Positions 30,120-45,367 of a stretch of 64,000 nucleotides of DNA are shown here, piece after piece (position 1 is the first letter of the stretch; every line of letters begins with the position of its first letter). The notes beneath the pieces were generated by a model that had not been told where the DNA came from, made no database searches, and was given only the letters and a program-made list of their open reading frames with translations. The translations under genes were made by a program, and so were the position numbers. The DNA lies in contig CACOAX010000002.1 in NCBI GenBank assembly GCA_902625365.1, positions 468 through 64,467 of the forward strand, in the 5' to 3' direction. This DNA is from an uncultured Alphaproteobacteria bacterium. GTDB taxonomy: Bacteria > Pseudomonadota > Alphaproteobacteria > HIMB59 > GCA-002718135.

Positions 30120-30734
30120 ATGAAATTTGATAATTTTTTAAAATTATTTTGTATTACATTGTTATTTTTATATGCATGTACTTCAAATCAGTTAACAAAT
30201 ACTGCTGATAGTTGCATAATTTTTGATGAAAAGAAAAGCTGGTATAAAGCAACTAAAAATTCTTATGATAAATGGAATACCCCAATTGCATTCCAATTAG
30301 CAGTTATAAAACAAGAATCATCTTTTACCCAATTTGCAAAACCGAAAAGAAAAAAATTTTTAGGTTTAATACCAACCTCTAGACCATCAACTGCTTTTGG
30401 TTATGCACAAATAACAAATCCCACTTGGGATTGGTATAAGAATAAAACTGGAAATCAAAATGCATCAAGGGCAAATTTTAGAGATGTAACTGATTTTATT
30501 GGCTGGTACACAACGCAGTCCGAAAATATGATTGGAATTTCAAAAAATGATTACTATAATCAATATTTAGCATATCATGAAGGTCAAAACGGATGGTCGA
30601 AAGAGACATTTAAAAGTAAAGATTGGTTGATTGATGTTGCTAAAAATGTAGAAAGAAATACTAAGATGTTTAATAAACAACTAAAACAATGCGAAGAAAA
30701 ACTAAATAAAAAAGGTTTCTTCGGAATACTATAA
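30120..30734 (+). CDS. Lipoprotein with a lytic-transglycosylase (SLT)-like domain
   Basis: From the internal ATG there is a lipobox, LFLYAC. It also has VIKQESSF (catalytic Glu-Ser) and AFGYAQIT motifs. Confidence 0.6.
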   Translation: MKFDNFLKLFCITLLFLYACTSNQLTNTADSCIIFDEKKSWYKATKNSYDKWNTPIAFQLAVIKQESSFTQFAKPKRKKFLGLIPTSRPSTAFGYAQITNPTWDWYKNKTGNQNASRANFRDVTDFIGWYTTQSENMIGISKNDYYNQYLAYHEGQNGWSKETFKSKDWLIDVAKNVERNTKMFNKQLKQCEEKLNKKGFFGIL

Positions 30735-31912
30735 TGCCAATTTTAAACAGCATAAATCAAATGCAAGATCAGATGACAGAATGGCGTCAGGATTTACATA
30801 AAATTCCTGAGATAGGCCTTCAAGAATTTGAAACATCAAAATATATCAAAAACAAGTTAAGTGAATTTAATATTAAATTTAAAGATGGTTACGCTAATAC
30901 AGGTGTTGTTGCTTGGGTAGATGGTAATGAAGTCACTAATGATAAGACAATTGGTTTAAGAGCAGATTTTGACGCTCTTCCTATGCCAGAACAAAACGAA
31001 TTTAATCATAAATCACAAAATAAAGGTATGATGCATGGTTGTGGTCATGATGGTCATACCACAATGCTTCTTGGAGCAGCGAAATATCTAAGTGAAAATA
31101 ATAATTTTAATGGAAGAGTATATTTCATTTTTCAACCAGGAGAAGAAGGTTTTGCTGGAGGAGAAAAAATGATTCAAGATGGTATGTTTGATGATTTTAA
31201 AATTGATGAAGTTTATGCACTTCATAATTGGCCTGAGTTACCTTTAGGTACGTTTGGTGTAAATAGTGGACCGATGATGGCAGCAGTTGATGAATTTGAT
31301 ATTACTGTAAAAGGAAAGGGTGGTCATGCTGCATCACCTCATCTAGCAATTGATCCTGTTGTAATTTCTGCACAAGTTATTTCTGCTGTTCAAACAATTA
31401 TAAGTAGATCCACAGATCCTGTTGATAAAGCTCTTATAAGTATTACAAAAATTAATGCTGGTACAGCTTATAATGTAATTGATGATCAAGTTAAAATGGG
31501 TGGGACAATTAGAACTTTTCGAAGAGAAACAAGAGCATACATAGAGAAAAGATTAAATGAATTATGTAAAGGTATAGCCGATGCACATGGTGCAGAGATA
31601 AAAATTGAGTTTGATTTAGTAAATAAATATCCACCTACTATAAATTCTAAAGAAGAAACAAAATTTGCCGCGAATGTAGCTAAAGATTTGGTTGGTGATG
31701 ATAAAGTTATTACTGATATTGACCCGTCAATGGGAGGAGAAGATTTTTCATATTTGTTAGAAAAAAAACCTGGTTCCTATCTTTATCTTGGTCAAGGAGA
31801 TGCAGAACATAGCGCTCATCTACATACAACAAAGTATGATTTTAATGATAATTTATTACCTATTGGTGTAAATTTTTGGGTGGAACTTGTTCAAAAATAC
31901 TTTTCTAAGTAA
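30734..31912 (+). CDS. M20D-family amidohydrolase (hippurate hydrolase / N-acyl-amino-acid amidohydrolase type)
   Basis: 392 aa with MHGCGHDGH, QPGEEG and GGEDFS motifs. Confidence 0.88.
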   Translation: MPILNSINQMQDQMTEWRQDLHKIPEIGLQEFETSKYIKNKLSEFNIKFKDGYANTGVVAWVDGNEVTNDKTIGLRADFDALPMPEQNEFNHKSQNKGMMHGCGHDGHTTMLLGAAKYLSENNNFNGRVYFIFQPGEEGFAGGEKMIQDGMFDDFKIDEVYALHNWPELPLGTFGVNSGPMMAAVDEFDITVKGKGGHAASPHLAIDPVVISAQVISAVQTIISRSTDPVDKALISITKINAGTAYNVIDDQVKMGGTIRTFRRETRAYIEKRLNELCKGIADAHGAEIKIEFDLVNKYPPTINSKEETKFAANVAKDLVGDDKVITDIDPSMGGEDFSYLLEKKPGSYLYLGQGDAEHSAHLHTTKYDFNDNLLPIGVNFWVELVQKYFSK

Positions 31913-33717: not shown

Positions 33718-33951
33718 ATGTTCCGATTGTTAATAGTTTTAATTGTTATAGTAATTATACTATTTATTTTGAGATCAAGAGCTAAATCACAATATAATAA
33801 TTATGGTAACTTTTATAGAAATTTAATTCTGATAGTCATAATCGGGGGTATAATCTTCTTCCTTGCAACAACTGGAAAATTCTTGATACCACAGTTATTA
33901 AACCTTATTAAAGTTGGTTTACCATTCTTGACAAAATTAATAGGAATATAA
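33718..33951 (+). CDS. Hypothetical small membrane protein
   Basis: 77 aa with two TM helices. Its stop shares a base with the next start (TAATG). Confidence 0.4.
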   Translation: MFRLLIVLIVIVIILFILRSRAKSQYNNYGNFYRNLILIVIIGGIIFFLATTGKFLIPQLLNLIKVGLPFLTKLIGI

Positions 33952-34814
33952 TGAAATATTTTTCAACAAATGATTTACCCTTAAACGATGAAATGATTAA
34001 TTTTTGGAATAATAACGGATATTTGGTTATAGAAAATTTCAACACAGATAAAGAATGTGATGAATTAATGCAACGATCATCATATCTTATTGAACATAAT
34101 AATTTTAATAATCAAAAATCTATTTTTGATACAGTCAATCAAGCTCATAATGATGATAATTATTTTTTAGAATCAGGAGATAAAATTCGTTTCTTCTTTG
34201 AAGAAAAAGCTAATTTAAATGATGATAACATAGAAGAAAATAAACATTTTATTGTAAATAAAATTGGTCATGCGTTGCATGACTTAGACAAAGTTTTTTA
34301 TAAATTTTCTCATAAGCAAAAACTTCAAGATATTGCTTTATCACTTGGTTTCTCTAAACCAAAATTACTTCAATCTATGTATATTTTTAAGCAACCAAAA
34401 ATAGGTGGTGAAGTAGTTTGCCATCAAGATTCTACTTTTTTATATACTGAGCCAGAAAGTACTATCGGTTTCTGGTTTGCATTAGAAGACGCAAATAAAA
34501 CAAACGGATGTTTACAGGTTGCAAGTGGAGGTCACAAAGGTCCATTAAGAAAACTTTTTAAAAAAGTAGACGGTAAAATGCAAATGATAGATCTAAATGA
34601 TGAACCATTTCCTGAAACTGATACTTTTGTAGAAGTAAAAAAAGGATCACTTGTTTTATTACATGGTAGACTACCTCATTATTCATGTGAGAACACAAGT
34701 TTAAAATCAAGACATGCTTACACAATTCATGTAATTGATAATAACAACAAATATCCTGAATGGAATTGGTTACAAAGATCTTCAATACCTCTTAAAAGTT
34801 TTATTAATGACTAA
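33951..34814 (+). CDS. Phytanoyl-CoA dioxygenase (PhyH) family Fe(II)/2-oxoglutarate oxygenase
   Basis: 287 aa with the HxD motif CHQDSTF, WFALEDANKTNGCL and a distal His in SRHAYTIH. Confidence 0.8.
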   Translation: MKYFSTNDLPLNDEMINFWNNNGYLVIENFNTDKECDELMQRSSYLIEHNNFNNQKSIFDTVNQAHNDDNYFLESGDKIRFFFEEKANLNDDNIEENKHFIVNKIGHALHDLDKVFYKFSHKQKLQDIALSLGFSKPKLLQSMYIFKQPKIGGEVVCHQDSTFLYTEPESTIGFWFALEDANKTNGCLQVASGGHKGPLRKLFKKVDGKMQMIDLNDEPFPETDTFVEVKKGSLVLLHGRLPHYSCENTSLKSRHAYTIHVIDNNNKYPEWNWLQRSSIPLKSFIND

Positions 34815-35751
34815 AAAAATAATTTTAGATTGTGATCCAGGTCATGATGATGCTGTAGCAATAATGTTGGCTGCTTCTTCTAAAGAGATTGACATACTGG
34901 GTATCACATGTGTTGGAGGAAATAGTGGTTTAAATAATACAGTAAATAACGCTCTTAAGGTTTGTACATTAATTGAAAGAACGGACATCAAAGTTTACTC
35001 AGGTGCAAATAAACCTATTCACTATGAATTATTTACAGCTGAATATGTTCATGGAAAAACCGGATTAGATAAAAAAGGTGATCCTATAATAATAGATACA
35101 AATTATAAACCTCAAGAAAAACATGCAGTTGATTTCATAGTAGAAACTTGTAAATCTTCAACAGAGCAAATTTATTTATGTCCAACAGGACCTCTTACGA
35201 ATATTGCCTTAAGTTTAAAAAAAGATCCGTCTATTAAAGAAAATATAAAAGAAATAGTTTTTATGGGTGGAGCCGCTATGTGCTTAGGAAATACTACACC
35301 TTCAGCTGAATTTAATATTTATGTGGATCCACATGCGGCTAATATTGTTTTAGAATCAGGCATTTCTTTAACAATGATGGGTTTAGATGTTACTCATCAG
35401 GTAAATGTAAATTCAAAAATTATCAAATCAATGAATGAAAATAAAAATAAAAGTTCTAAGTTTTTTGGTGAACTAATGGAATTTTATACAATATTTCATA
35501 AAGAGTTGTACGAAACTGAGGAAACACCTCTGCATGACCCATGTGTCATCGCATATTTATTAGATCCATCTATCTTTAGTGGTAAACAGGTTAATGTCAC
35601 AGTTGAAGAAAATTCTGAATTAACAAGAGGGGAGACTGTTGTTGATTGGCTTGGTGTTACCAAAAGACCAGCAAATTGTTTTGTGATGAATGAAGCTAAT
35701 GATGAAAAATTTTTTCAATTACTTAAAGATAAATTATCTTTGTTACCTTAG
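34807..35751 (+). CDS. Inosine/uridine-preferring nucleoside hydrolase
   Basis: I trimmed to the ATG at 34807, which gives MTKKIILDCDPGHDDAVAI (the DxDxxxDD calcium-binding signature). Confidence 0.9.
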   Translation: MTKKIILDCDPGHDDAVAIMLAASSKEIDILGITCVGGNSGLNNTVNNALKVCTLIERTDIKVYSGANKPIHYELFTAEYVHGKTGLDKKGDPIIIDTNYKPQEKHAVDFIVETCKSSTEQIYLCPTGPLTNIALSLKKDPSIKENIKEIVFMGGAAMCLGNTTPSAEFNIYVDPHAANIVLESGISLTMMGLDVTHQVNVNSKIIKSMNENKNKSSKFFGELMEFYTIFHKELYETEETPLHDPCVIAYLLDPSIFSGKQVNVTVEENSELTRGETVVDWLGVTKRPANCFVMNEANDEKFFQLLKDKLSLLP

Positions 35752-36668
35752 CTATAAAAACTTTTTGCAATCTGTCCAGCTAAATTTGCATTATTAATTA
35801 TTAATGATACATTAGCATTTAGAGTTTCATTTTTTGATTGTTCGTTAATTTCATTTATAAGAAATGGCGTTAATTCTTTTCCACTAATATTATTTCTATC
35901 AGCTTTTATTGTTGCATTATTAATCCATTTTTCAACGTCATTTTTATTAAGCGCCTTTTCTATTGGAACTTTGTTAAATATGAGAATTGATTTTTTATTT
36001 TCTATATTTTTATTGAGTTTTAAAAAAGAAGAAATTTCATGAATTTCATCAAATTTTTTATCAACTTTATTTTCTGTTTCTTCATACCAAAAACCAGGCA
36101 TATAATTTGTTTGATAACCAATTCTTGTAATTCCTAAAGTTTCAAGTAGTTCATTTGTTTTGTTTAAATCTAAAATAGATTTAGCACCACTACAGATTAC
36201 AAAATTTGAATTCTCAGAAAGTGCATATAGATCTGCAGATACATCATTCGTATTTTCAGCATTAAGATGTACACCACCAATTCCCCCTGTTGCAAAAAAT
36301 CTTATTTGAAATTTAGAAGCTATAGAAATTGAACTTGCTACTGTTGTAGCAGCATTTTCTTTATTAAATATTGATAAATTTATATTGTGGTTAGATACTT
36401 TTTGTACATTTTTCTCTTTTGCTAATATTTGAATATCCTCTTGCGATAATCCTATTTTAACCTTACCTCTAATTATTCCTATTGTTGCAGCAATTGCACC
36501 ATTATCTTCAACGGCCTTTATAGACTCGTTTGCGACTTTAATATTTTCTGGATAAGGCAATCCATGACTAATCAATGTGCTTTCTAAAGCTACTATTGGT
36601 TTTTTTCTATTTATTGCCTCCTGAACTTTTTCACTTACATCAAATATTTCTTGCATACTATTGTACAC
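35748..36668 (-). CDS. psuG: Pseudouridine-5'-phosphate glycosidase
   Basis: 306 aa. ALESTLISHGLPYP and FATGGIGGVH are typical of the IndA/PsuG family. Confidence 0.88.
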   Translation of the reverse strand: MYNSMQEIFDVSEKVQEAINRKKPIVALESTLISHGLPYPENIKVANESIKAVEDNGAIAATIGIIRGKVKIGLSQEDIQILAKEKNVQKVSNHNINLSIFNKENAATTVASSISIASKFQIRFFATGGIGGVHLNAENTNDVSADLYALSENSNFVICSGAKSILDLNKTNELLETLGITRIGYQTNYMPGFWYEETENKVDKKFDEIHEISSFLKLNKNIENKKSILIFNKVPIEKALNKNDVEKWINNATIKADRNNISGKELTPFLINEINEQSKNETLNANVSLIINNANLAGQIAKSFYS

Positions 36669-37545
36669 TCACTTTCTTAGAAAGATTTTTAATTTTTAAA
36701 AAATCACTTTTAGTTTTTAGGCTTTTACCACTAGCATAATAAGATCCGCATGCTACTGAAGTTTTCAAAATATAATTCATATTTTCATTTATACTGAACA
36801 AATACAGCATCATGGCTGCTAGTGCGTCTCCAGCTCCATTTTCGTTTACTACTTTTATTGATGGGGGTTTTATTTTTTTTATAAATTCATTACTTCCAAA
36901 TATTACATTATTTTTTGAATTAGTAGTAATTATTTTTATTTTTTTATTTTGTTTTAATATTTTTTTTACACCTAATATAATATTTGAAGAATTAGTAAGT
37001 TTAAGTAACTCCGCTTTATTTAAGAATATAAAATCAATTTTATTTATAATTCTTTTAATTTTAATAACTTTATGCACTGATGTAGCGCACACTATAATTT
37101 TATTTTTTTTTGATAGTTTATTTATTGATTTTTCCAAATAGGTTTTAGAAAAATTTAGATCAAATATTATATTTTTATTCTTGATGTTTGGTATTTTTAA
37201 AGATTTATTATTTTCATATTCATCTGTGTTAGCTAAACCTAATAAAAATTTATTATTTTTATCTGATAAAGCTAAATAGTATCTATCTGTATAATTTTTA
37301 TTCACTTGATTAACATATATTTTTTTTGAGATTTTTTTTCTAATCTCTTCATTGATAGCTAAACTATAAAAATTTACATCAACAAAATTTGAAAGCAATT
37401 CTGCAATATTATACGCCACTCCACCAATTCTGCTTTTTTGTGTAATTTGATTAGATCTAAAATTAATAATATTTTTTTTAAGATTTAATAAATAATCGTG
37501 ATGAATTGCCCCAATACAAACAAAAATGTTTTTAGATTTCAGCAT
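36658..37545 (-). CDS. psuK: PfkB-family carbohydrate kinase, probably pseudouridine kinase
   Basis: 295 aa with the C-terminal NENGAGDA motif of ribokinase-like kinases. It overlaps psuG by 11 nt. Confidence 0.75.
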   Translation of the reverse strand: MLKSKNIFVCIGAIHHDYLLNLKKNIINFRSNQITQKSRIGGVAYNIAELLSNFVDVNFYSLAINEEIRKKISKKIYVNQVNKNYTDRYYLALSDKNNKFLLGLANTDEYENNKSLKIPNIKNKNIIFDLNFSKTYLEKSINKLSKKNKIIVCATSVHKVIKIKRIINKIDFIFLNKAELLKLTNSSNIILGVKKILKQNKKIKIITTNSKNNVIFGSNEFIKKIKPPSIKVVNENGAGDALAAMMLYLFSINENMNYILKTSVACGSYYASGKSLKTKSDFLKIKNLSKKVSVQ

Positions 37546-37546
37546 T

Positions 37547-40500
37547 ATGAATTATACACCTTTTATGTCAGTTTTTGATGTTGATCCACCTATTATTGAT
37601 AATAAACATTTAATTAAATGGTTAAAGATTAATTTTTCTTTCTTAAGAAATAAATTACTCAAAATTAAACAACTTGATAGTGAAAGGGATATAAATTTTA
37701 TTATATTCATAAATAACAAAAAAAAATATGTATTGAAAATTTCAAACCCATCAGAAAAAATAAATATATTAAAATACCAAGATAGATTAATTAATTATTT
37801 ACGAAGTGATCTTAGTCTTAAATCTTTTATACCAAAAATACACCATACAAAGATTGTAAAATATTTAGATAAAAAAAATAGAGAATGCTTTGTTAGGATC
37901 TTGTCTTATATTGAAGGGCAAATGTACGGAGCTATAAAAAATACCGATAAGATTGAAAATTCTTTAGGTAAGTTACTTGGAAAAGTATCAAATAAGTTAC
38001 AAGCATTTAATGATATAGATGCTCATAGAAATTTTATTTGGGATCCATCAAATATAAAATGGATTAAAAAAGATATTAATATTTTTACTGGCTCAAAAAA
38101 ATCAATTTTATTAAAATGTTTTTCAGAATATCAAAAATTTGTAAAAAATAATTTAAATAAATTAAGATATTCAATAACTCATTCAGATCCAAATAATTAT
38201 AATATCGTTATTAAGGAAAACAATGTTTGTGGTTTACTAGATTATGGAGACTCTATTTATTCTCCAACAATAAATGATTTAGCTATATGTCTTTCATACG
38301 CATTAATGAATAATGACAACATTTATCTTACACTTAAAAATATAATAACAGAGTACAATAAACAGTTTTCTATTAATGAGGATGAAATTAATTCATTAAT
38401 ATCGCTATGTAAGTCAAGACTTATGATTACTGTTGTAATGGCAAAAAAACAAAGAATTAAATATCCATCAAATCAATATTTAAGTATTAGTGAGAAAGAT
38501 GCATGGTCTTTATTAGAAAAATTAGACAAAATTCCTATCAATTTTTTAATATATATTGTTCGTGAAATATGTGGCTTTGATATTATTCAGCATCATAATG
38601 AAATTATAAATTATATAAATAAATTCAACTTTGGTAATATTTTTAAATTTAATTTACTTGATAAAAATAAATCTATCTTGAAATTAAGTTCTGATTCACC
38701 TTTATTAAAAGGTAATCCAGATAATAGTTTGCTTAAAAAAAGAGTTAATAAAATATTTAAAGAAGATAATTCTCGTATAGGAATAGGTTTATACAATGAA
38801 AAAAGAAAAGTTTATAAGGGTCCTAACTTCATTTCTGAATTAAATACGAATGAAAGACGTAATATTCATTTAGGCGTAGATATCTTTATTGATCAGGGAA
38901 CAGATTTATTTGCACCAATAGAAGGTAAAATTTTAATTTTAAAAAATAATAATTTTAAATATGACTATGGTCCCACTCTAGTTTTAGAACATAGTTTTAA
39001 AAAATATAAATTTTATACTCTTTACGGTCATTTATCCAAAATAATGTTTCAAAAACTAAAAACTGGAAAAAAAATTAAGAAAGGTGACTGGATTGGTAAA
39101 ATTGGTAACTCTAATGAAAATGGAAAATGGTTACCACATTTACATTTTCAAATTATTTTAGATTTATTAGGACATGATAAGAATTTTCCAGGAGTAGGTG
39201 AAGAATTTTTATTCAATATTTGGAATAAAATTTCACCTGATCCAAATTTAATTCTACGAATTCCAAAATCGTTTTATTCTAATAATAATAATTTTAGAGA
39301 TACTTTAAAAAAAAGAAGAAAAAATATTTCAGATAATTTTTCAATTTCTTACAAGAACCCCCTTCATATGCTTGAAGCTAAAGATCAGTATTTTTTTGAT
39401 AGATATGGAAGAAGATACTTAGATTGTGTAAATAATATTTCCCATGTTGGGCATTCAAATTCTTATGTCCATGAAGCAATGACTCAACAAAATTTAAAAC
39501 TTAATACTAATACAAGATATCTTTACAATACAATTAATGATTATAGTGAATTACTTTTAAGTAAGTTTCCAAAGAAATTAAATAAGATATTTTTTGTATG
39601 CACAGGATCTGAAGCTAATGATTTAGCGTATAGAATAGCTCAAACTTATACTAATGCAAAAGATGTCTTTGTTATAGATAATGCTTATCATGGGCATACC
39701 AATGCTTTAATTGATCTGAGTCCTTATAAATTTAATAGTAAGGGTGGTTTAGGTAAAAAAGATTATGTTCACGTATTAGATATGCCTGATCCCTTAAGAG
39801 GTAAGTGGAAATATCAAAATTCAAATTGGATTAAAAAATATATAACTGAAGCTAAAACAGTAATTAGAAATAAAATTAAAGAAACCAAAATTGCATGTTT
39901 TTTTGCTGAAAGTATACTTGGTTGCGGTGGTCAAGTAATTCTTCCAAAAAATTATTTAAAAGAAATATTTTCAGAAATTAGAAGAAACAATGCTTTATGT
40001 ATCGTTGATGAGATACAAACTGGTTTCGGACGTGTTGGAAGAAATTTTTGGTCATTTGAAGAGCATGATGTCGTTCCTGATATAGTAACCTTAGGAAAAC
40101 CTATGGGTAATGGTCACCCTATAGCTGCTGTTATAACTACCGAAAAAATTGCTTCAACTTTTAATAACGGGATGGAATATTTTAATTCATTCGGTGGCAA
40201 TCCTGTTTCCTGCGCTATTGGTAAAGCAGTATTAGAGACTATTGATAATAATAAATTACAAAAAAATGCTTTGTTAGTTGGTAATTATTTTTTAAAAGAA
40301 TTAAAAAAAATTCAACTAAAATATAAAAAATATATTAGTGAAGTTAGAGGTAGAGGGCTTTTTTTAGGAATGGATATTATTCAAAATAGTAATATCTCTA
40401 AACCAAATAAAAAATTAGCTAAACTGCTTATTAATTATATGAGAAATCAAGGTATTTTATTGAGCACTGATGGCCCTTATGACAATGTTATTAAAATAAA

Positions 40501-40576
40501 ACCACCTCTTGTATTTACAAAATTAAATGTTGATCAGGTATGTAAAAATTTAGAAACTTTCTTTAAAAAATTATAA
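37547..40576 (+). CDS. Tri-domain fusion: APH/hydroxylysine-kinase-like phosphotransferase, M23 peptidase-like domain, and class-III aminotransferase-fold (AGXT2L/phospho-lyase-like) domain
   Basis: The kinase loop is HSDPNNYN plus LLDYGDS. The M23 motifs are HLGVD and PHLHFQ. The PLP domain has DEIQTGFGRVGRNFWSFEEH and DIVTLGKPMGNGHP. I prefer the ATG at 37547 because 37526 would overlap the divergent psuK start. Confidence 0.85.
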   Translation: MNYTPFMSVFDVDPPIIDNKHLIKWLKINFSFLRNKLLKIKQLDSERDINFIIFINNKKKYVLKISNPSEKINILKYQDRLINYLRSDLSLKSFIPKIHHTKIVKYLDKKNRECFVRILSYIEGQMYGAIKNTDKIENSLGKLLGKVSNKLQAFNDIDAHRNFIWDPSNIKWIKKDINIFTGSKKSILLKCFSEYQKFVKNNLNKLRYSITHSDPNNYNIVIKENNVCGLLDYGDSIYSPTINDLAICLSYALMNNDNIYLTLKNIITEYNKQFSINEDEINSLISLCKSRLMITVVMAKKQRIKYPSNQYLSISEKDAWSLLEKLDKIPINFLIYIVREICGFDIIQHHNEIINYINKFNFGNIFKFNLLDKNKSILKLSSDSPLLKGNPDNSLLKKRVNKIFKEDNSRIGIGLYNEKRKVYKGPNFISELNTNERRNIHLGVDIFIDQGTDLFAPIEGKILILKNNNFKYDYGPTLVLEHSFKKYKFYTLYGHLSKIMFQKLKTGKKIKKGDWIGKIGNSNENGKWLPHLHFQIILDLLGHDKNFPGVGEEFLFNIWNKISPDPNLILRIPKSFYSNNNNFRDTLKKRRKNISDNFSISYKNPLHMLEAKDQYFFDRYGRRYLDCVNNISHVGHSNSYVHEAMTQQNLKLNTNTRYLYNTINDYSELLLSKFPKKLNKIFFVCTGSEANDLAYRIAQTYTNAKDVFVIDNAYHGHTNALIDLSPYKFNSKGGLGKKDYVHVLDMPDPLRGKWKYQNSNWIKKYITEAKTVIRNKIKETKIACFFAESILGCGGQVILPKNYLKEIFSEIRRNNALCIVDEIQTGFGRVGRNFWSFEEHDVVPDIVTLGKPMGNGHPIAAVITTEKIASTFNNGMEYFNSFGGNPVSCAIGKAVLETIDNNKLQKNALLVGNYFLKELKKIQLKYKKYISEVRGRGLFLGMDIIQNSNISKPNKKLAKLLINYMRNQGILLSTDGPYDNVIKIKPPLVFTKLNVDQVCKNLETFFKKL

Positions 40577-41162
40577 AATATATTCCATAACTAATCATTA
40601 GCAGACCAATGGTTAGATCAATCCAAAACCATGTTTTATTTGAATAAATATATTTTGATAAAAACTTTGACATATATCCTAAAGAAAAGAAAAACAAAAA
40701 ACTAGCTGAAATTGCTCCAACGCCAAATAAAAATTGTTCATTAAAATTTGTTGATAATGATCCCAGCAAAATAATTGTATCTAGATAAACATGAGGATTT
40801 GCATATGTAATAAGAAATAAGGTAATTAATACTTTTCCGTATTCGTTAATTATATTTAATTCTTTTTTGATATCTTTAATTTGATTTAGTTTTATAACTT
40901 TATTTAATCCATAAAATATAAGCCAAATTCCACCTAATACTTTTACTATTCCAATAATACTTGGATTAATTTGAACAATATAATTAGATAGATATATTCC
41001 GATTACAATTAGTAAACTGTCAGATAGACTGCAAAATAAAGTGACTGTAAAAACATAAGATTTTTTAAGCCCTTGCTGAATTACAAATAAATTTTGAGGT
41101 CCTATTGCTATAATTAATGTTCCTCCAATTATTAATCCTTGGATAAAATCATAAATATGCAT
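40563..41162 (-). CDS. LysE/ArgO-family amino-acid exporter
   Basis: 199 aa with the N-terminal AIGPQNLFVIQQG motif and six TM segments. Confidence 0.85.
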   Translation of the reverse strand: MHIYDFIQGLIIGGTLIIAIGPQNLFVIQQGLKKSYVFTVTLFCSLSDSLLIVIGIYLSNYIVQINPSIIGIVKVLGGIWLIFYGLNKVIKLNQIKDIKKELNIINEYGKVLITLFLITYANPHVYLDTIILLGSLSTNFNEQFLFGVGAISASFLFFFSLGYMSKFLSKYIYSNKTWFWIDLTIGLLMISYGIYFIIF

Positions 41163-41197: not shown

Positions 41198-41656
41198 ATG
41201 CACAAAATTATATTGTTTAGTTTATTTATTTTATTATCAAAAAATGTTTATGGAGAAATGATAAAACCTGATCCTTCAATTGGTCCTAAAGAAGTTATTC
41301 TAATTCAATTAAAGGCACTCCAAAACAATGATTTACCTTTTATTGATGCTGGAATTGAGCAAACTTGGGAATTTGCGCATCCTAATAATAGAATATACAC
41401 AGGCCCTCTAGAAAATTTTATTAGGATGATTAAGAATCCATCCTATGCAATGATGATTGACCATTTAGAGCACAATATAATTCCTGTTCAGGAACAAGAA
41501 AAAAGTTCATACTATTTTGTAGAACTTACAGATAGTAATGGAAAAAAATTTGGTTTCGAATGGACTGTAGAAAAAGTAGATCAAATTGGTGAGTTTAAAG
41601 ATTGTTGGATGACCATCGGTGTTTCTACACCAATGCCTTTATCACAAGCATCATAG
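41198..41656 (+). CDS. Exported DUF4864-like protein
   Basis: 152 aa with a signal peptide. IQLKALQNND...WEFAHPNNR resembles DUF4864 (NTF2-like). Confidence 0.6.
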   Translation: MHKIILFSLFILLSKNVYGEMIKPDPSIGPKEVILIQLKALQNNDLPFIDAGIEQTWEFAHPNNRIYTGPLENFIRMIKNPSYAMMIDHLEHNIIPVQEQEKSSYYFVELTDSNGKKFGFEWTVEKVDQIGEFKDCWMTIGVSTPMPLSQAS

Positions 41657-42312
41657 TGTGTGGGAGATTTACAAGTACTGAAGATAAAGAAAAAATTATA
41701 AAATTATTTCCTAACTCTGAAGTTTTAAACTACGCTCATAAGTCTTACAATATATCACCTTCAAATATCATTAATATCATTTATGAAAATAACCATAACC
41801 TTTTAATAGATACTTTTAGTTGGAGTTATAGTTTCTTTAGTAAACAAAATAATGTTACTCAATTTGTTATTAATGCAAGAATTGAAACGATTAATGACAA
41901 ATATTTATTTAAAGAATCATTTACTAAGAGAAAATGCCTTATTATTGCAAATGGATATTATGAATGGAAAAATATAAACAATCAAAAACAACCATATTTA
42001 ATATCAATCCCAAAAAATGAATTATTATTTTTAGGTGGAATTTGGAGAGAAGAAATCAGAGATAATAAGAAAACAAATGTTGCTTGTATAATTACTAAGG
42101 AAGCAAATGAAAAGCTTTCCCAAATACATAATAGAATGCCTCTTATTATGTCTCATAATGAGGGTCTTGATTTTCTAAATGATAATGAAAATGAATTTCT
42201 ATATAACAACAAAAGCATTATCGAGGATGATTTAGACTTTTATCCAGTATCAAAAATTGTAAATAATCCAAAAAATAATGATGAAAATTGCCTTAAGGAA
42301 ATATCTTTATAA
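41656..42312 (+). CDS. SOS-response-associated peptidase (SRAP/YedK) abasic-site processing protein
   Basis: From the GTG at 41656 the protein begins (M)CGRFT with the catalytic Cys at position 2. It also has NARIET, GYYEW and HNRMP motifs. Confidence 0.8.
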   Translation: MCGRFTSTEDKEKIIKLFPNSEVLNYAHKSYNISPSNIINIIYENNHNLLIDTFSWSYSFFSKQNNVTQFVINARIETINDKYLFKESFTKRKCLIIANGYYEWKNINNQKQPYLISIPKNELLFLGGIWREEIRDNKKTNVACIITKEANEKLSQIHNRMPLIMSHNEGLDFLNDNENEFLYNNKSIIEDDLDFYPVSKIVNNPKNNDENCLKEISL

Positions 42313-42369: not shown

Positions 42370-43308
42370 ATGAGCCATTTATTTTATAAACCTGCTAAAT
42401 CTAGATTACACAGAAGTGAATTGGCAGTTCCTGGGTCTAATCCAAAGATGTTTGAAAAAGCATTAAAATCAAATGCCGATTATATTTTTCTCGATTTAGA
42501 AGATGCAGTATCTCCAAATGATAAAATTGATGCAAGAAAAAATGTTATTAACGCAATAAAAGAATATAATTGGCGAGAAGAAGGTAAAACAATTTCTATA
42601 AGAATTAACGGCTTGGATACACACTATATGTATCGTGATGTGATCGAAATTATAGAAGAGGTCGGTGATATGGTTGATACATTATTAATTCCAAAAGTAG
42701 GCTCATCATCTGACGTATATATGGTTGACTGTATGCTTAATCAAATTGAACAAAATAAAAAATTTGAAAATCGAATAGGTTTAGAATGTTTAATTGAAAC
42801 AGCATTAGGAATGTCTAATATCCAATCAATAGCAACATCAAGTTCGAGACTAGAAGCATTACACTTTGGAGTTGCAGATTATGCAGCAAGTATGCGAGCA
42901 AGAACTGTTGTCATAGGAGGTTTAAATCCCGATTACCCTGGTGATCAATGGCACCATGGCTTATCAACTTTAGTAATGACCTGTAGATCATATGGGTTAA
43001 GAGCAATAGATGGTCCTTTTGGTGATTTTAATGACAAGGAAGGGTATCTTGATGCAGCAAAAAGAGCCGCAGCAATTGGTTTTGAAGGTAAATGGGCAAT
43101 ACATCCATCGCAAATAGATCTAGCTAATGAAGTTTTTTCTCCACCCAAAGAAGAAATAGATAAAGCAAAAAGAATATTATTAGAATTAGAAAAAGCAGCT
43201 GCTGAAGGAAAGGGCGCTGCTCAGCTTGATGGCAGAATGATCGATGCTGCATCCGCAAGAATGGCTGAAAATATTGTAAATATTAATAAATTAATTGAGA
43301 GCAAGTAA
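42370..43308 (+). CDS. mcl: L-malyl-CoA/beta-methylmalyl-CoA lyase (HpcH/CitE family)
   Basis: 312 aa. RLHRSELAVPGSNP, IRINGLDTHYMYRDV, FGVADYAAS and GFEGKWAIHPSQIDLANEVF are near-identical to my recollection of methylotroph MclA. Confidence 0.88.
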   Translation: MSHLFYKPAKSRLHRSELAVPGSNPKMFEKALKSNADYIFLDLEDAVSPNDKIDARKNVINAIKEYNWREEGKTISIRINGLDTHYMYRDVIEIIEEVGDMVDTLLIPKVGSSSDVYMVDCMLNQIEQNKKFENRIGLECLIETALGMSNIQSIATSSSRLEALHFGVADYAASMRARTVVIGGLNPDYPGDQWHHGLSTLVMTCRSYGLRAIDGPFGDFNDKEGYLDAAKRAAAIGFEGKWAIHPSQIDLANEVFSPPKEEIDKAKRILLELEKAAAEGKGAAQLDGRMIDAASARMAENIVNINKLIESK

Positions 43309-44471
43309 TGGACATACACGAATATCAAGCAAAAAAAATATTGTCTGATTTTGGTGTTAAAATTCCAACTGGTGGTATTGTTTATAGTCCAGAAAATGCA
43401 GAAAATAAAGCGAGAGAAATTGGTGGTTCTAAATGGGTTGTAAAAGCGCAAGTTCACTCTGGTGCTAGAGGTAAAGCGGGAGGAATTATATTATGTAATT
43501 CTCCATTAGAAGTTGCTGATGCAACTGATAAATTATTAGGTAAAAAATTAATTACAAACCAAACTGGTCCAGAAGGTAAAATAATAAATAGAATTTATAT
43601 TGAAGAAGCAACTGATATCAAACATGAATTATATTTAGGTTTAGTGTTTGATAGATCTTCAGAAAGTATAATGGTTGTAGCTTCAACAGAAGGTGGAATG
43701 AGTGTCGAAGAAATTTCAAAAGAAAAACCTGAAACAATTATACGATCTAAAATAGAAGTAGCAGTTGGCATTCAGCAATTTCAAGCAAGAGAAATAGCTT
43801 TTGGTTTGGGAATTGAATCCAAATTGATCTCAAGAGCTGCAAATACTATTATTGGTTGTTATAAAGCATTTAGTGAGCTTGATGCAACAATGGTTGAAGT
43901 TAACCCATTAGTTGTATCAAACCAAGATGAAATATTAGCATTAGATTGTAAAATGAGTTTTGATAATAATGCAATGTTTAGAAGAGATGAAATTGCAGAA
44001 CTTAGAGATAAAACACAGGAAAATTCTAACGAAGTTTATGCTTCTGACAGAGGAATGAATTATGTAAGCCTAGACGGGAATATTGGTAATATTATTAATG
44101 GTGCAGGTTTAGCAATGGCTTCAATGGACATGATAAAACTTGCCGGCGGTGAACCTGCAAATTTTCTAGATGTTGGTGGAGGGGCCACTCCTGAGAAAAT
44201 AGTTAAAGCTTTTAAGTTAATCTCTATGGACACAAAAGTTAAGGTAATTTTAGTTAATATTTTTGCAGGTATTAACAGATGTGATTGGGTTGCGGAAGGA
44301 ATCGTTCAAGCTTTATCAAAAATTGAAATTAAACATCCTTTAGTTATACGTTTAGCTGGAACGAACGTTGAAAAAGGAAATGAAATACTAAAAAAAAGCA
44401 ATATTAATTACATTGAAGCATCAACTTTGGAAGATGCAGCAAATAAAGCAGTAAAGGCTCTTGCACAATAA
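43308..44471 (+). CDS. mtkA: Malate--CoA ligase beta subunit (SucC homologue, MtkA-like)
   Basis: 387 aa with an ATP-grasp N-terminus MDIHEYQAK. QQFQAREIAF and NIFAGINRCDWVAEG match MtkA rather than the SucC wording as I recall it. It is coupled to mcl (TAATG). Confidence 0.8.
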   Translation: MDIHEYQAKKILSDFGVKIPTGGIVYSPENAENKAREIGGSKWVVKAQVHSGARGKAGGIILCNSPLEVADATDKLLGKKLITNQTGPEGKIINRIYIEEATDIKHELYLGLVFDRSSESIMVVASTEGGMSVEEISKEKPETIIRSKIEVAVGIQQFQAREIAFGLGIESKLISRAANTIIGCYKAFSELDATMVEVNPLVVSNQDEILALDCKMSFDNNAMFRRDEIAELRDKTQENSNEVYASDRGMNYVSLDGNIGNIINGAGLAMASMDMIKLAGGEPANFLDVGGGATPEKIVKAFKLISMDTKVKVILVNIFAGINRCDWVAEGIVQALSKIEIKHPLVIRLAGTNVEKGNEILKKSNINYIEASTLEDAANKAVKALAQ

Positions 44472-45367
44472 TGTCTATAATCATTCACAAAAATACAAAG
44501 ATTTTAGTCCAAGGTTTTACTGGAAAAATTGGAAGCTTTCATGCTGAAGAAATGATTAAGTATGGTTCAAACGTTGTTGGTGGAGTAACACCTGGAAAGG
44601 GAGGTATGACTCATTTGAATCTTCCTGTTTTTAATACTGTTAAAGAAGCTGTAGATCAAACGGGTGCATCAACGTCAATTTTATTTGTACCACCATCCTT
44701 TGCAGCAGACTCAGCAATGGAAGCTGCTGATGCAGGTATTAAAACTTGTGTGGCTATTACTGATGGTATACCTTCTCATGATATGGTTAAAATAAAAAGA
44801 TATATGAAAAGATACCCAAAAGATAAAAAAATGGGATTAGTAGGTCCGAATTGTGCAGGAATAATTAGCCCTGGTAAATCCATGTTAGGTATTATGCCAG
44901 GTCATATTTACAAAGAAGGTAAAATAGGAATAGTTAGTAGATCTGGTACTTTGGGATATGAAGCTGCACAACAACTTAAAGATTTAGAAATAGGTGTTTC
45001 AACAAGTGTTGGTATTGGAGGTGATCCAATAAATGGCAGTTCTTTTAGAGATATAATTGAAAAGTTCGAGAATGATGATGAAACAATTGCAGTTTTAATG
45101 ATAGGTGAAATAGGTGGTCCGCAAGAAGTAGAGGCTGGTAAATTTGCTAAAGAAAATATGAGTAAACCTGTAATTGCTTATATTGCAGGGTTAACTGCTC
45201 CTAAAGGTCGTGTTATGGGTCATGCTGGAGCTATAGTCTCTGCATATGGTGAAAGTGCGATTGAAAAAGTAGAACTTCTTAAAGAGTGTGGAGTTACGAT
45301 TTCCAAAAACCCTTCTGTAATGGGAGAGACCGTAAAAAAAGTATTGGTAGAAAATAAATTGAATTAA
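44471..45367 (+). CDS. mtkB: Malate--CoA ligase alpha subunit (SucD homologue, MtkB-like)
   Basis: 298 aa with CoA-binding VQGFTGKIGSFH and the phosphohistidine loop GHAGAIVS. Confidence 0.8.
   Translation: MSIIIHKNTKILVQGFTGKIGSFHAEEMIKYGSNVVGGVTPGKGGMTHLNLPVFNTVKEAVDQTGASTSILFVPPSFAADSAMEAADAGIKTCVAITDGIPSHDMVKIKRYMKRYPKDKKMGLVGPNCAGIISPGKSMLGIMPGHIYKEGKIGIVSRSGTLGYEAAQQLKDLEIGVSTSVGIGGDPINGSSFRDIIEKFENDDETIAVLMIGEIGGPQEVEAGKFAKENMSKPVIAYIAGLTAPKGRVMGHAGAIVSAYGESAIEKVELLKECGVTISKNPSVMGETVKKVLVENKLN

Follow-up and report, generated by a model that had tools for sequence, protein, structure and literature searches.

Degradation of amino alcohols by phosphorylation and subsequent elimination of the phosphate has been described in both animals and bacteria. 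In animals, the second step is carried out by the pyridoxal 5′-phosphate (PLP)-dependent phospho-lyases ETNPPL (AGXT2L1) and PHYKPL (AGXT2L2), which are stand-alone proteins of ca. 450 to 500 residues, with their kinases encoded by separate genes. PHYKPL acts downstream of hydroxylysine kinase (HYKK/AGPHD1), whereas ETNPPL obtains its phosphoethanolamine from a different kinase. In Erwinia and Pseudomonas, Jones, Faulkner, and Turner reportedly described, in the 1970s, a pathway with the same two-step logic, in which an amino alcohol kinase phosphorylates ethanolamine or 1-aminopropan-2-ol and an O-phosphate phospho-lyase (EC 4.2.3.2) eliminates inorganic phosphate (Pi) and NH3 to leave an aldehyde; no M23 component is described for it. 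To our knowledge, the genes for these activities have never been tied to the protein family considered here. In the current study, we analyzed a stretch of 64,000 nucleotides from an uncultured alphaproteobacterium (contig CACOAX010000002.1, positions 468 to 64,467; hereafter the window), in which a single gene of 1,009 codons joins a kinase domain, a domain of peptidase family M23, and a PLP domain. In this protein, the counterpart of the stand-alone animal lyases makes up only the C-terminal third of the 1,009 residues.

The connection between such fusions and the animal enzymes is not new. Veiga-da-Cunha et al. (J Biol Chem, 2012) are said in their abstract to have begun from bacterial bi- and trifunctional fusions with a kinase of the APH family, from which the functions of AGXT2L1, AGXT2L2, and AGPHD1 were reportedly deduced and afterwards demonstrated. 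An earlier note on the present DNA, made from the sequence alone, predicted a kinase and a phospho-lyase in one polypeptide; this is the published inference run backwards. The same note placed both animal enzymes downstream of hydroxylysine kinase, which holds for PHYKPL only and is wrong for ETNPPL. The 2012 study is cited as a success of gene fusion analysis or comparative genomics in PMC12138971 and PMC5714238. The library that we searched contained no characterized bacterial three-domain enzyme. What we describe is a new, very AT-rich marine alphaproteobacterial member of a known family, and it brings no new principle.

The gene is a single stop-free open reading frame (ORF) of 1,009 codons plus a stop codon, as the earlier note had it, and every motif quoted there is present. 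Its parts are as follows.

37547..40576, forward strand: whole three-domain gene (kinase, M23, putative PLP phospho-lyase); intact ORF, end-to-end match to NF004799, AlphaFold2 (AF2) model
37568..38581, forward strand: APH-fold small-molecule kinase domain, residues 8 to 345; Pfam, conservation, profile and fold matches
38582..38773, forward strand: linker from kinase to M23, residues 346 to 409; 15% mean identity to distant homologues, modeled with high confidence
38774..39202, forward strand: peptidase M23 (LytM-type) domain, residues 410 to 552; Pfam, alignment to 6jmx and 2hsi, conservation
39203..39292, forward strand: helical connector into the PLP domain, residues 553 to 582; helices at 553 to 562, 567 to 570, and 574 to 578 in the model, 24% mean identity
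39293..40573, forward strand: PLP domain of class III fold, ETNPPL/PHYKPL phospho-lyase type, residues 583 to 1009; PDB, Foldseek, conservation

All three domains exceed the Pfam gathering scores: APH (PF01636) at residues 57 to 254 (38.7 bits against a cutoff of 23.2; E, 1.2e-9), Peptidase_M23 (PF01551) at 440 to 537 (61.9 bits against 28.7; E, 6.6e-17), and Aminotran_3 (PF00202) at 606 to 1004 (257 bits against 30.5). The full-length AF2 model has a predicted local distance difference test (pLDDT) score of 94.8 and a predicted template modeling (pTM) score of 0.89, with residues 1 to 6 as its only region of low confidence, and suggests that the three domains pack together. No PDB entry spans more than one domain of the protein in fold comparison (best whole-query TM score, 0.40).

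The gene is real and intact, and the family to which it belongs is widespread and already catalogued. More than 30 single-cell or metagenome assemblies, all independent, carry a collinear full-length copy at 94 to 96% identity, and nearly full-length collinear copies at 36 to 42% identity occur in at least nine phyla, among them Chloroflexota, Acidobacteriota, Bacteroidota, Deltaproteobacteria, Actinomycetes, Gemmatimonadota, Verrucomicrobiota, and Deinococcota. The closest relatives are single-cell genomes labeled simply as uncultured Alphaproteobacteria, and those further away carry the labels HIMB59, Pelagibacteraceae, or MarineAlpha5. Among the best 150 representatives after clustering at 50% identity, at least 121 have all three domains (ca. 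1,000 residues) and at least 19 are two-domain kinase-PLP proteins (ca. 750 residues). Homologues of 966 to 1,057 amino acids align end to end with the fusion protein, and copies that span 80% or more of its length are present in 87 plasmid records, including Sinorhizobium meliloti pSymB and a Paracoccus megaplasmid. The catalogued relatives are NF004799 (PRK06148), which is named “hypothetical protein” and is a 1,015-position model of the same kinase-M23-PLP architecture, and NF004800 (PRK06149), named “aminotransferase.” Residues 39 to 1007 match positions 29 to 1009 of the NF004799 profile, and each domain taken separately also matches the corresponding stretch.

On sequence and fold comparison, the PLP domain groups with the ETNPPL/PHYKPL phospho-lyases and not with transaminases, and the earlier note's likening of its wording to the AGXT2L enzymes is borne out. 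That wording includes DEIQTGFGRVGRNFWSFEEH at residues 821 to 840 and DIVTLGKPMGNGHP at residues 845 to 858. The best PDB sequence matches are human ETNPPL (6tor; E, 1.2e-121; 410 bits) and Arthrobacter A1RDF1 (5g4i; E, 9e-87; 295 bits); a racemase follows at 2e-43, all other matches are at or below 152 bits, and every transaminase is weaker. In trimmed alignments, the domain shares 46.6% of its residues with ETNPPL (over about 415 residues), 38% with A1RDF1, and 28 to 31% with the racemase and a GABA transaminase. Foldseek superimposes the AF2 model on 6tor with a TM score of 0.94 and a root mean square deviation of 1.8 Å, and the TM score to the A1RDF1 structure is likewise 0.94. A1RDF1 (Arthrobacter aurescens TC1; 5G4I/5G4J), which is also a stand-alone protein, is nonetheless the more distant of the two. 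According to Cuetos et al. (ChemBioChem, 2016), it reportedly has O-phosphoethanolamine phospho-lyase activity and no transaminase activity. In a neighbor-joining tree that is star-like, has no support values, and does not include PHYKPL, ETNPPL falls among the PLP domains of fusion proteins, A1RDF1 lies outside them, and the transaminase and the racemase form the outgroups.

The residues of the PLP site point the same way. Conservation was counted over 94 diverse family representatives (50% identity or less, many phyla), and in all 94 of them Arg657 (nt 39515 to 39517), the PLP-binding Asp821 (nt 40007 to 40009), the Schiff-base Lys851 (nt 40097 to 40099), and Lys983 (nt 40493 to 40495) are invariant. 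In class III transaminases, a conserved arginine binds the carboxylate of the oxo acid. Lys983 aligns with lysine in 6tor and 5g4i and with arginine in 9wrf, 7vno, and 9wqz [motif NV(L/I)R(I/L)xPPL], while the LNTNTRY motif that contains Arg657 has the counterparts NTNSRF in 6tor and NLHTRY in 5g4i and is missing from the three aligned nonlyases; this Lys/TRY diagnostic is our own reading of five alignments and not a published rule. The fusion protein thus has in common with ETNPPL (6TOR) the Schiff-base lysine, the PLP-binding aspartate, the LNTN(T/S)R(Y/F) motif, and lysine in place of arginine, and with A1RDF1 the lysine of NVLK(M/I)(R/K)PP and the TRY motif.

The kinase domain, judged by its motifs and fold, is an intact small-molecule kinase of the APH/homoserine kinase II type. 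Its catalytic positions are Lys64 (nt 37736 to 37738), HSDPNNYN at residues 212 to 219 (nt 38180 to 38203), and DYG at 232 to 234 (nt 38240 to 38248). Asp214, Asn219, and Asp232 are present in every one of the 94 representatives, Lys64 in 91, and His212 in 86. As a single sequence, the kinase domain alone found no match in the PDB, but a family-profile search returned 6ef6 as the best match (E, 2e-16), followed by Agrobacterium type II homoserine kinase (2ppq), amicoumacin kinase (6sum), and APH(2″) enzymes. A separate model of residues 1 to 345 (pLDDT, 95.5) gave Foldseek TM scores of 0.6 to 0.7 to amicoumacin kinase, homoserine kinase II, and NahK, at identities of 11 to 18%. The homoserine kinase NCBIfam models are far below their cutoff (32 bits against 271). 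We take 6ef6, whose PDB title reads only “aminoglycoside phosphotransferase,” to be the (S)-1-amino-2-propanol kinase of the Rhodococcus and Mycobacterium microcompartment (RMM) of M. smegmatis, an identity reportedly established by Mallette and Kimber (J Biol Chem, 2018), whose study is cited in PMC8007038, and the product of this kinase is presumably cleaved by a PLP phospho-lyase. APH-fold amino alcohol kinases do pair with PLP phospho-lyases. HYKK/AGPHD1 and the bacterial amino alcohol kinases have an APH/eukaryotic-like kinase (ELK) fold with HxDxxxxN and DxG motifs, as does the fusion kinase. Unlike HYKK and the RMM kinase, however, the latter is joined to other domains, and it has no microcompartment context.

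Because the PLP domain is of the phospho-lyase type and the kinase is intact, the best reading of the protein, as the earlier note proposed, is a route from an amino alcohol to a carbonyl compound, NH4+, and Pi. We consider it probable that the fusion is a cytoplasmic, self-contained amino-alcohol-degrading enzyme of the PRK06148 family that acts first as a kinase and then as a phospho-lyase. It has neither a signal peptide nor a hydrophobic N terminus. By homology, the kinase would use ATP or GTP to phosphorylate a hydroxyl neighboring a terminal amine. The PLP domain, as its closeness to ETNPPL and A1RDF1 suggests, would then take up the amine as an external aldimine on Lys851-bound PLP, a proton would be abstracted from the amine-bearing carbon, and the vicinal phosphate would be eliminated; the released enamine or imine would hydrolyze to a carbonyl compound and NH4+. 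The predicted net reaction is amino alcohol plus nucleoside triphosphate to aldehyde or ketone, NH4+, Pi, and nucleoside diphosphate. With 5-hydroxy-L-lysine as the substrate, the product would be 2-aminoadipate semialdehyde, as with the animal HYKK/PHYKPL pair. Such a deamination would depend on neither a transaminase nor vitamin B12 and would yield both nitrogen and a carbon skeleton. The earlier note expected the route to scavenge phosphorus as well. That part does not stand in net terms, since the Pi released would be the gamma-phosphate of the spent nucleotide; the cost would be one ATP or GTP per NH4+.

The M23 domain lies between two cytoplasmic, cofactor-dependent enzymes, an atypical location for peptidase family M23. 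Its extent in the earlier note (38768 to 39169, residues 408 to 541) agrees with the Pfam match and with the strands of the model (411 to 552). The M23 structures 6jmx (E, 2e-9) and 2hsi align with it and match all of its HxxxD, YxHL, and HxH motifs, which are represented by HLGVD at residues 441 to 445 (nt 38867 to 38881; His441 and Asp445), His495 in YGHL (nt 39029 to 39031), and PHLHF at 530 to 534 (nt 39134 to 39148; His531 and His533 of HLH at nt 39137 to 39145). Known M23 enzymes, such as Campylobacter Pgp3 (6JMX), Vibrio ShyA, and Escherichia coli MepM, are secreted or periplasmic hydrolases of peptidoglycan or elastin, or degenerate activators; the present domain, in contrast, is internal to a cytoplasmic metabolic enzyme. 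Since the fusion protein has no signal peptide, peptidoglycan is an implausible substrate.

The earlier note suggested that this domain might serve for binding or oligomerization and not as a peptidase. Taken strictly, that is, as a scaffold or oligomerization module whose histidines bind zinc structurally, if at all, and which hydrolyzes nothing, this is possible, but it is not the reading that we favor. Several observations are consistent with it: M23-less kinase-PLP proteins are common and, in the PLP tree, interspersed with three-domain proteins, no separate M23 gene was found near two-domain forms in the three loci examined, the usual substrate would be beyond the reach of a protein that is not exported, and the pTM score suggests a rigid, packed assembly. 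In addition, about 8 of the 94 representatives have lost at least two of the M23 zinc ligands while keeping their kinase and PLP residues. These natural “M23-dead” variants are listed here.

P0189, P0198, P0199, P0205, P0206, P0210, P0222, P0228: three-domain members with loss of M23 ligands

Given that both two-domain and degenerate-site forms exist, M23 appears to be dispensable for the core chemistry. Against a mere scaffold, the full HDHHH set of zinc ligands and catalytic residues, including the nonligand catalytic His495 and His531, is kept in 82 of the 94, whereas these residues have been lost from known noncatalytic LytM domains, EnvC and NlpD among them. The domain is also conserved almost as well as the PLP domain (mean identity to distant homologues, 39.8% and 44.5%, respectively) and better than the kinase (25.1%) or the linkers (15 to 24%), and the lineages with a degenerate site show relaxed conservation over the whole M23 domain (23 to 28% identity). 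From this pattern we infer that in most lineages M23 is a working metal site under selection and not a passive spacer. It might hydrolyze an amide- or peptide-linked precursor of the substrate. One specific version, which we regard as rather unlikely, is that M23 is an active cytoplasmic zinc amidase or peptidase performing a third, upstream step in which the amino alcohol is freed from a conjugate; candidates would be a collagen Gly-X-Hyl-type di- or tripeptide containing hydroxylysine, or an N-acyl or gamma-glutamyl amino alcohol. If true, three catabolic steps would be lined up in a single polypeptide, and an M23 peptidase would for the first time have a role in metabolism and not in the cell wall.

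With regard to the substrate of the kinase-lyase pair, we turned to the gene neighborhoods. ORFs in 32 loci were clustered by all-against-all BLAST, and 105 flanking genes entered a Pfam census. In the window, the fusion gene is followed by one gene that may bear on the question.

40563..41162, reverse strand: LysE/ArgO-type basic amino acid exporter gene; PF01810 (E, 8.8e-25), convergent, 14-nt overlap (40563 to 40576)

The earlier note had described this convergent gene, and its overlap with the fusion gene, exactly. Of the NCBIfam models, it comes closest to TIGR00948, for an L-lysine exporter (137.6 bits), and to ArgO (126 bits), without reaching the cutoff of either, and it is syntenic in three relatives (L023, L030, and L033) at 60 to 77% identity. 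Phyllobacterium, Pararhizobium, and Shinella share a conserved unit in which the fusion gene is accompanied by a divergent Lrp/AsnC regulator and an amino acid substrate-binding protein; in the Phyllobacterium copy (the only one scanned), the best model for the binding protein is of the lysine/arginine/ornithine type and that for the regulator is LysM. On S. meliloti pSymB (L078, 5743 to 11946), a LacI regulator, an amino acid ABC transporter (binding protein and permease), and a short-chain dehydrogenase/reductase gene lie directly upstream in the same orientation, and this binding protein also scores best as the lysine/arginine/ornithine type. Close to the Paracoccus copy lie an ABC transporter of the amino acid type and a gene of the glutamine synthetase family. 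In locus L086 (4853 to 8544), the stop codon of a two-domain member overlaps the start of an Orn/Arg/Lys-decarboxylase-family gene, an arrangement suggesting an operon that ties the pathway to basic amino acids or diamines. Ornithine cyclodeaminase/mu-crystallin genes flank 4 of 29 distant loci, although at least three of these share other neighbors and probably represent one lineage. An unfused operon in Herbaspirillum is annotated in PMC13275390 as comprising a haloacid dehalogenase (HAD)-family gene, a “hydroxylysine kinase” (a KEGG label), and a “GABA aminotransferase” and ending in an Lrp/AsnC regulator. Taken together, the neighborhoods point weakly to a hydroxylated basic amino acid, such as 5-hydroxy-L-lysine, as our leading guess for the substrate. 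As a separate observation on pSymB, the fusion gene there is followed by sugar ABC transporter and glycosidase genes in what is a catabolic island.

As the main alternative, the same chemistry could act on ethanolamine, to give acetaldehyde, or on 1-aminopropan-2-ol, to give propionaldehyde, much as in the Erwinia and Pseudomonas pathway and with the aminopropanol kinase and phospho-lyase of the mycobacterial RMM microcompartment. According to their entry names, O-phosphoethanolamine is the substrate of both 6tor and 5g4i, the nearest PLP enzymes with solved structures, the best match of the kinase profile is 6ef6 (with the aminopropanol kinase identity that we presume for it), and no aldehyde- or lysine-pathway partner is conserved beside the fusion gene. 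Ethanolamine derived from phosphatidylethanolamine is, moreover, an abundant source of nitrogen in the sea. On the other hand, the neighbors that recur are amino-acid-type transporters, Lrp/AsnC regulators, and the LysE/ArgO exporter, whereas ethanolamine permeases and aldehyde dehydrogenases do not recur. The resemblance to ETNPPL in particular carries no information on the bacterial substrate, since the vertebrate ETNPPL/PHYKPL split presumably came after the divergence from bacteria. We therefore hold ethanolamine or aminopropanol to be a doubtful assignment; if true, it would provide a B12-free alternative to ethanolamine ammonia-lyase.

A number of points weigh against a self-contained amino-alcohol-degrading enzyme acting on a hydroxylated basic amino acid. 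The literature that we searched (our library only) shows no activity measurement for any three-domain member, and the tree that places ETNPPL has the weaknesses given above. The M23 ligands are lost in some members, and the domain is absent from the two-domain forms, with kinase and PLP sites kept in both. The match to NF004799 (1,012.9 bits) is below the curated cutoff of 1,128, plausibly because of extreme AT-rich composition (the G+C content of the window is ca. 26%) and divergence. No partner gene is conserved across phyla among the loci and flanking genes surveyed, only within related taxa, which would, however, also fit a self-contained module. The hints as to the substrate all lie below curated cutoffs or come from generic families (SBP_bac_3, LysE, and Lrp/AsnC serve many amino acids), and LysE is an exporter that is convergent and not cotranscribed with the fusion gene. 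Finally, ETNPPL-like and PHYKPL-like specificities are indistinguishable here, as PHYKPL and HYKK lie outside the comparison.

Another reading, in which the PLP domain works as a true aminotransferase of class III and the kinase is functionally unrelated to it, is very improbable. The Aminotran_3 match would be compatible with such an activity, as would the public names of homologues, “5-aminovalerate aminotransferase DavT” (P0019 and P0024) and “aminotransferase class III-fold PLP-dependent enzyme.” However, these names are automatic, and “DavT” on P0019 and P0024 is almost certainly a misannotation propagated from the class III fold. The specific NCBIfam transaminase models are all far under their cutoffs (GABA-AT, 175 bits against 507; argD, 213 against 410), identity to transaminases is about 30% compared with 47% to ETNPPL, lysine replaces the transaminase arginine in every representative, and the fusion to a kinase has been kept across phyla.

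A frameshift or assembly artifact joining separate genes, which the earlier note had itself raised, has practically no chance of being correct: one metagenome contig (L084) does have the C terminus of the kinase in a separate ORF that overlaps an M23-PLP ORF, but the same uninterrupted architecture recurs in the more than 30 independent assemblies, in distant phyla, and in complete plasmids and chromosomes, a curated 1,015-position full-length profile exists, and AF2 packs the three domains confidently.

The L084 arrangement deserves a separate remark. At 2 to 2135, the ORF for the kinase end overlaps a 596-residue M23-PLP ORF by 38 nt, through either a frameshift error or a real split variant. 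P0240, which we had considered as a distinct “M23-PLP only” architecture, was rejected as such: an overlapping upstream ORF encodes the end of a kinase domain, and P0240 is probably a frameshifted or split copy. P0268 is a stand-alone PLP homologue whose contig is too short to tell us more.

The start codon is the sole uncertainty in the description of the gene. The possible starts are ATG 37547; ATG 37526, which is in frame upstream and would give a product of 1,016 amino acids; and Met7 (nt 37565), where homologues at 60% identity (P0032) begin. Two genes on the other strand have to be considered alongside.

36658..37545, reverse strand: PfkB-family kinase gene; PF00294, divergent from the fusion gene
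35748..36668, reverse strand: Indigoidine_A/PsuG-type pseudouridine-5′-phosphate glycosidase gene; PF04227

The PfkB start codon (37545) and the start annotated for the fusion gene (37547) are 1 nt apart, so that the divergent promoters must be located within coding sequence unless Met7 (37565) is where the fusion gene begins. The two reverse-strand genes look like a pseudouridine catabolism pair, with PfkB probably being pseudouridine kinase. Together with an inosine-uridine nucleoside hydrolase gene on the forward strand, they make up a nucleoside salvage or catabolism cluster (34735 to 37545). A 109-codon ORF at 36812 to 37141, on the forward strand and antisense within the PfkB gene, is almost certainly spurious; its translation is hydrophobic and of low complexity.

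Further out, a PhyH-family Fe(II)/2-oxoglutarate dioxygenase gene (33951 to 34814) lies 2.7 kb upstream of the fusion gene and is syntenic in relatives at 60 to 77% identity. A PhyH gene also lies ca. 2.7 kb from the fusion gene in a gemmatimonadotal locus (L071, 4317 to 5177). We considered a functional link between this hydroxylase and the fusion enzyme and rejected it; the two PhyH proteins are only 28% identical, and unrelated genes separate each from the fusion gene. Downstream, a DUF4864 protein with a signal-like N terminus and an overlapping SRAP (SOS-response-associated peptidase) gene (41198 to 42312) are both syntenic with the fusion gene in relatives. At 42370 to 45367, an HpcH/HpaI (CitE/malyl-CoA-lyase-like) gene is directly followed by an ATP-grasp and CoA-ligase gene of the succinyl-CoA synthetase beta type and then by a putative alpha-subunit ORF, an arrangement that recalls malate thiokinase and malyl-CoA lyase; RipC and CitE, the top-scoring NCBIfam models, do not reach their cutoffs. 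An M20 amidohydrolase gene (30734 to 31912) matches carboxypeptidase CpsA (364 bits) and N-acetyl-diaminobutyrate deacetylase DoeB2 (348 bits), both below cutoff, and possibly encodes an N-acyl amino acid or peptide hydrolase; homologous ORFs are also present in the three closest of the relatives examined and at the distant locus L069. An Rfam scan of the window found no RNA family at the gathering threshold.

The family represented by this gene comprises hundreds of clusters in at least nine phyla, and its members range from genome-streamlined marine alphaproteobacteria to rhizobial megaplasmids. Knowing the substrate would define a route to nitrogen, independent of transaminases and B12, from amino alcohols or hydroxylated basic amino acids, and would replace names that are at present uninformative or wrong (“DavT,” “aminotransferase class III,” and “hypothetical protein”). 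It could also reveal a function for M23 domains outside the cell wall.

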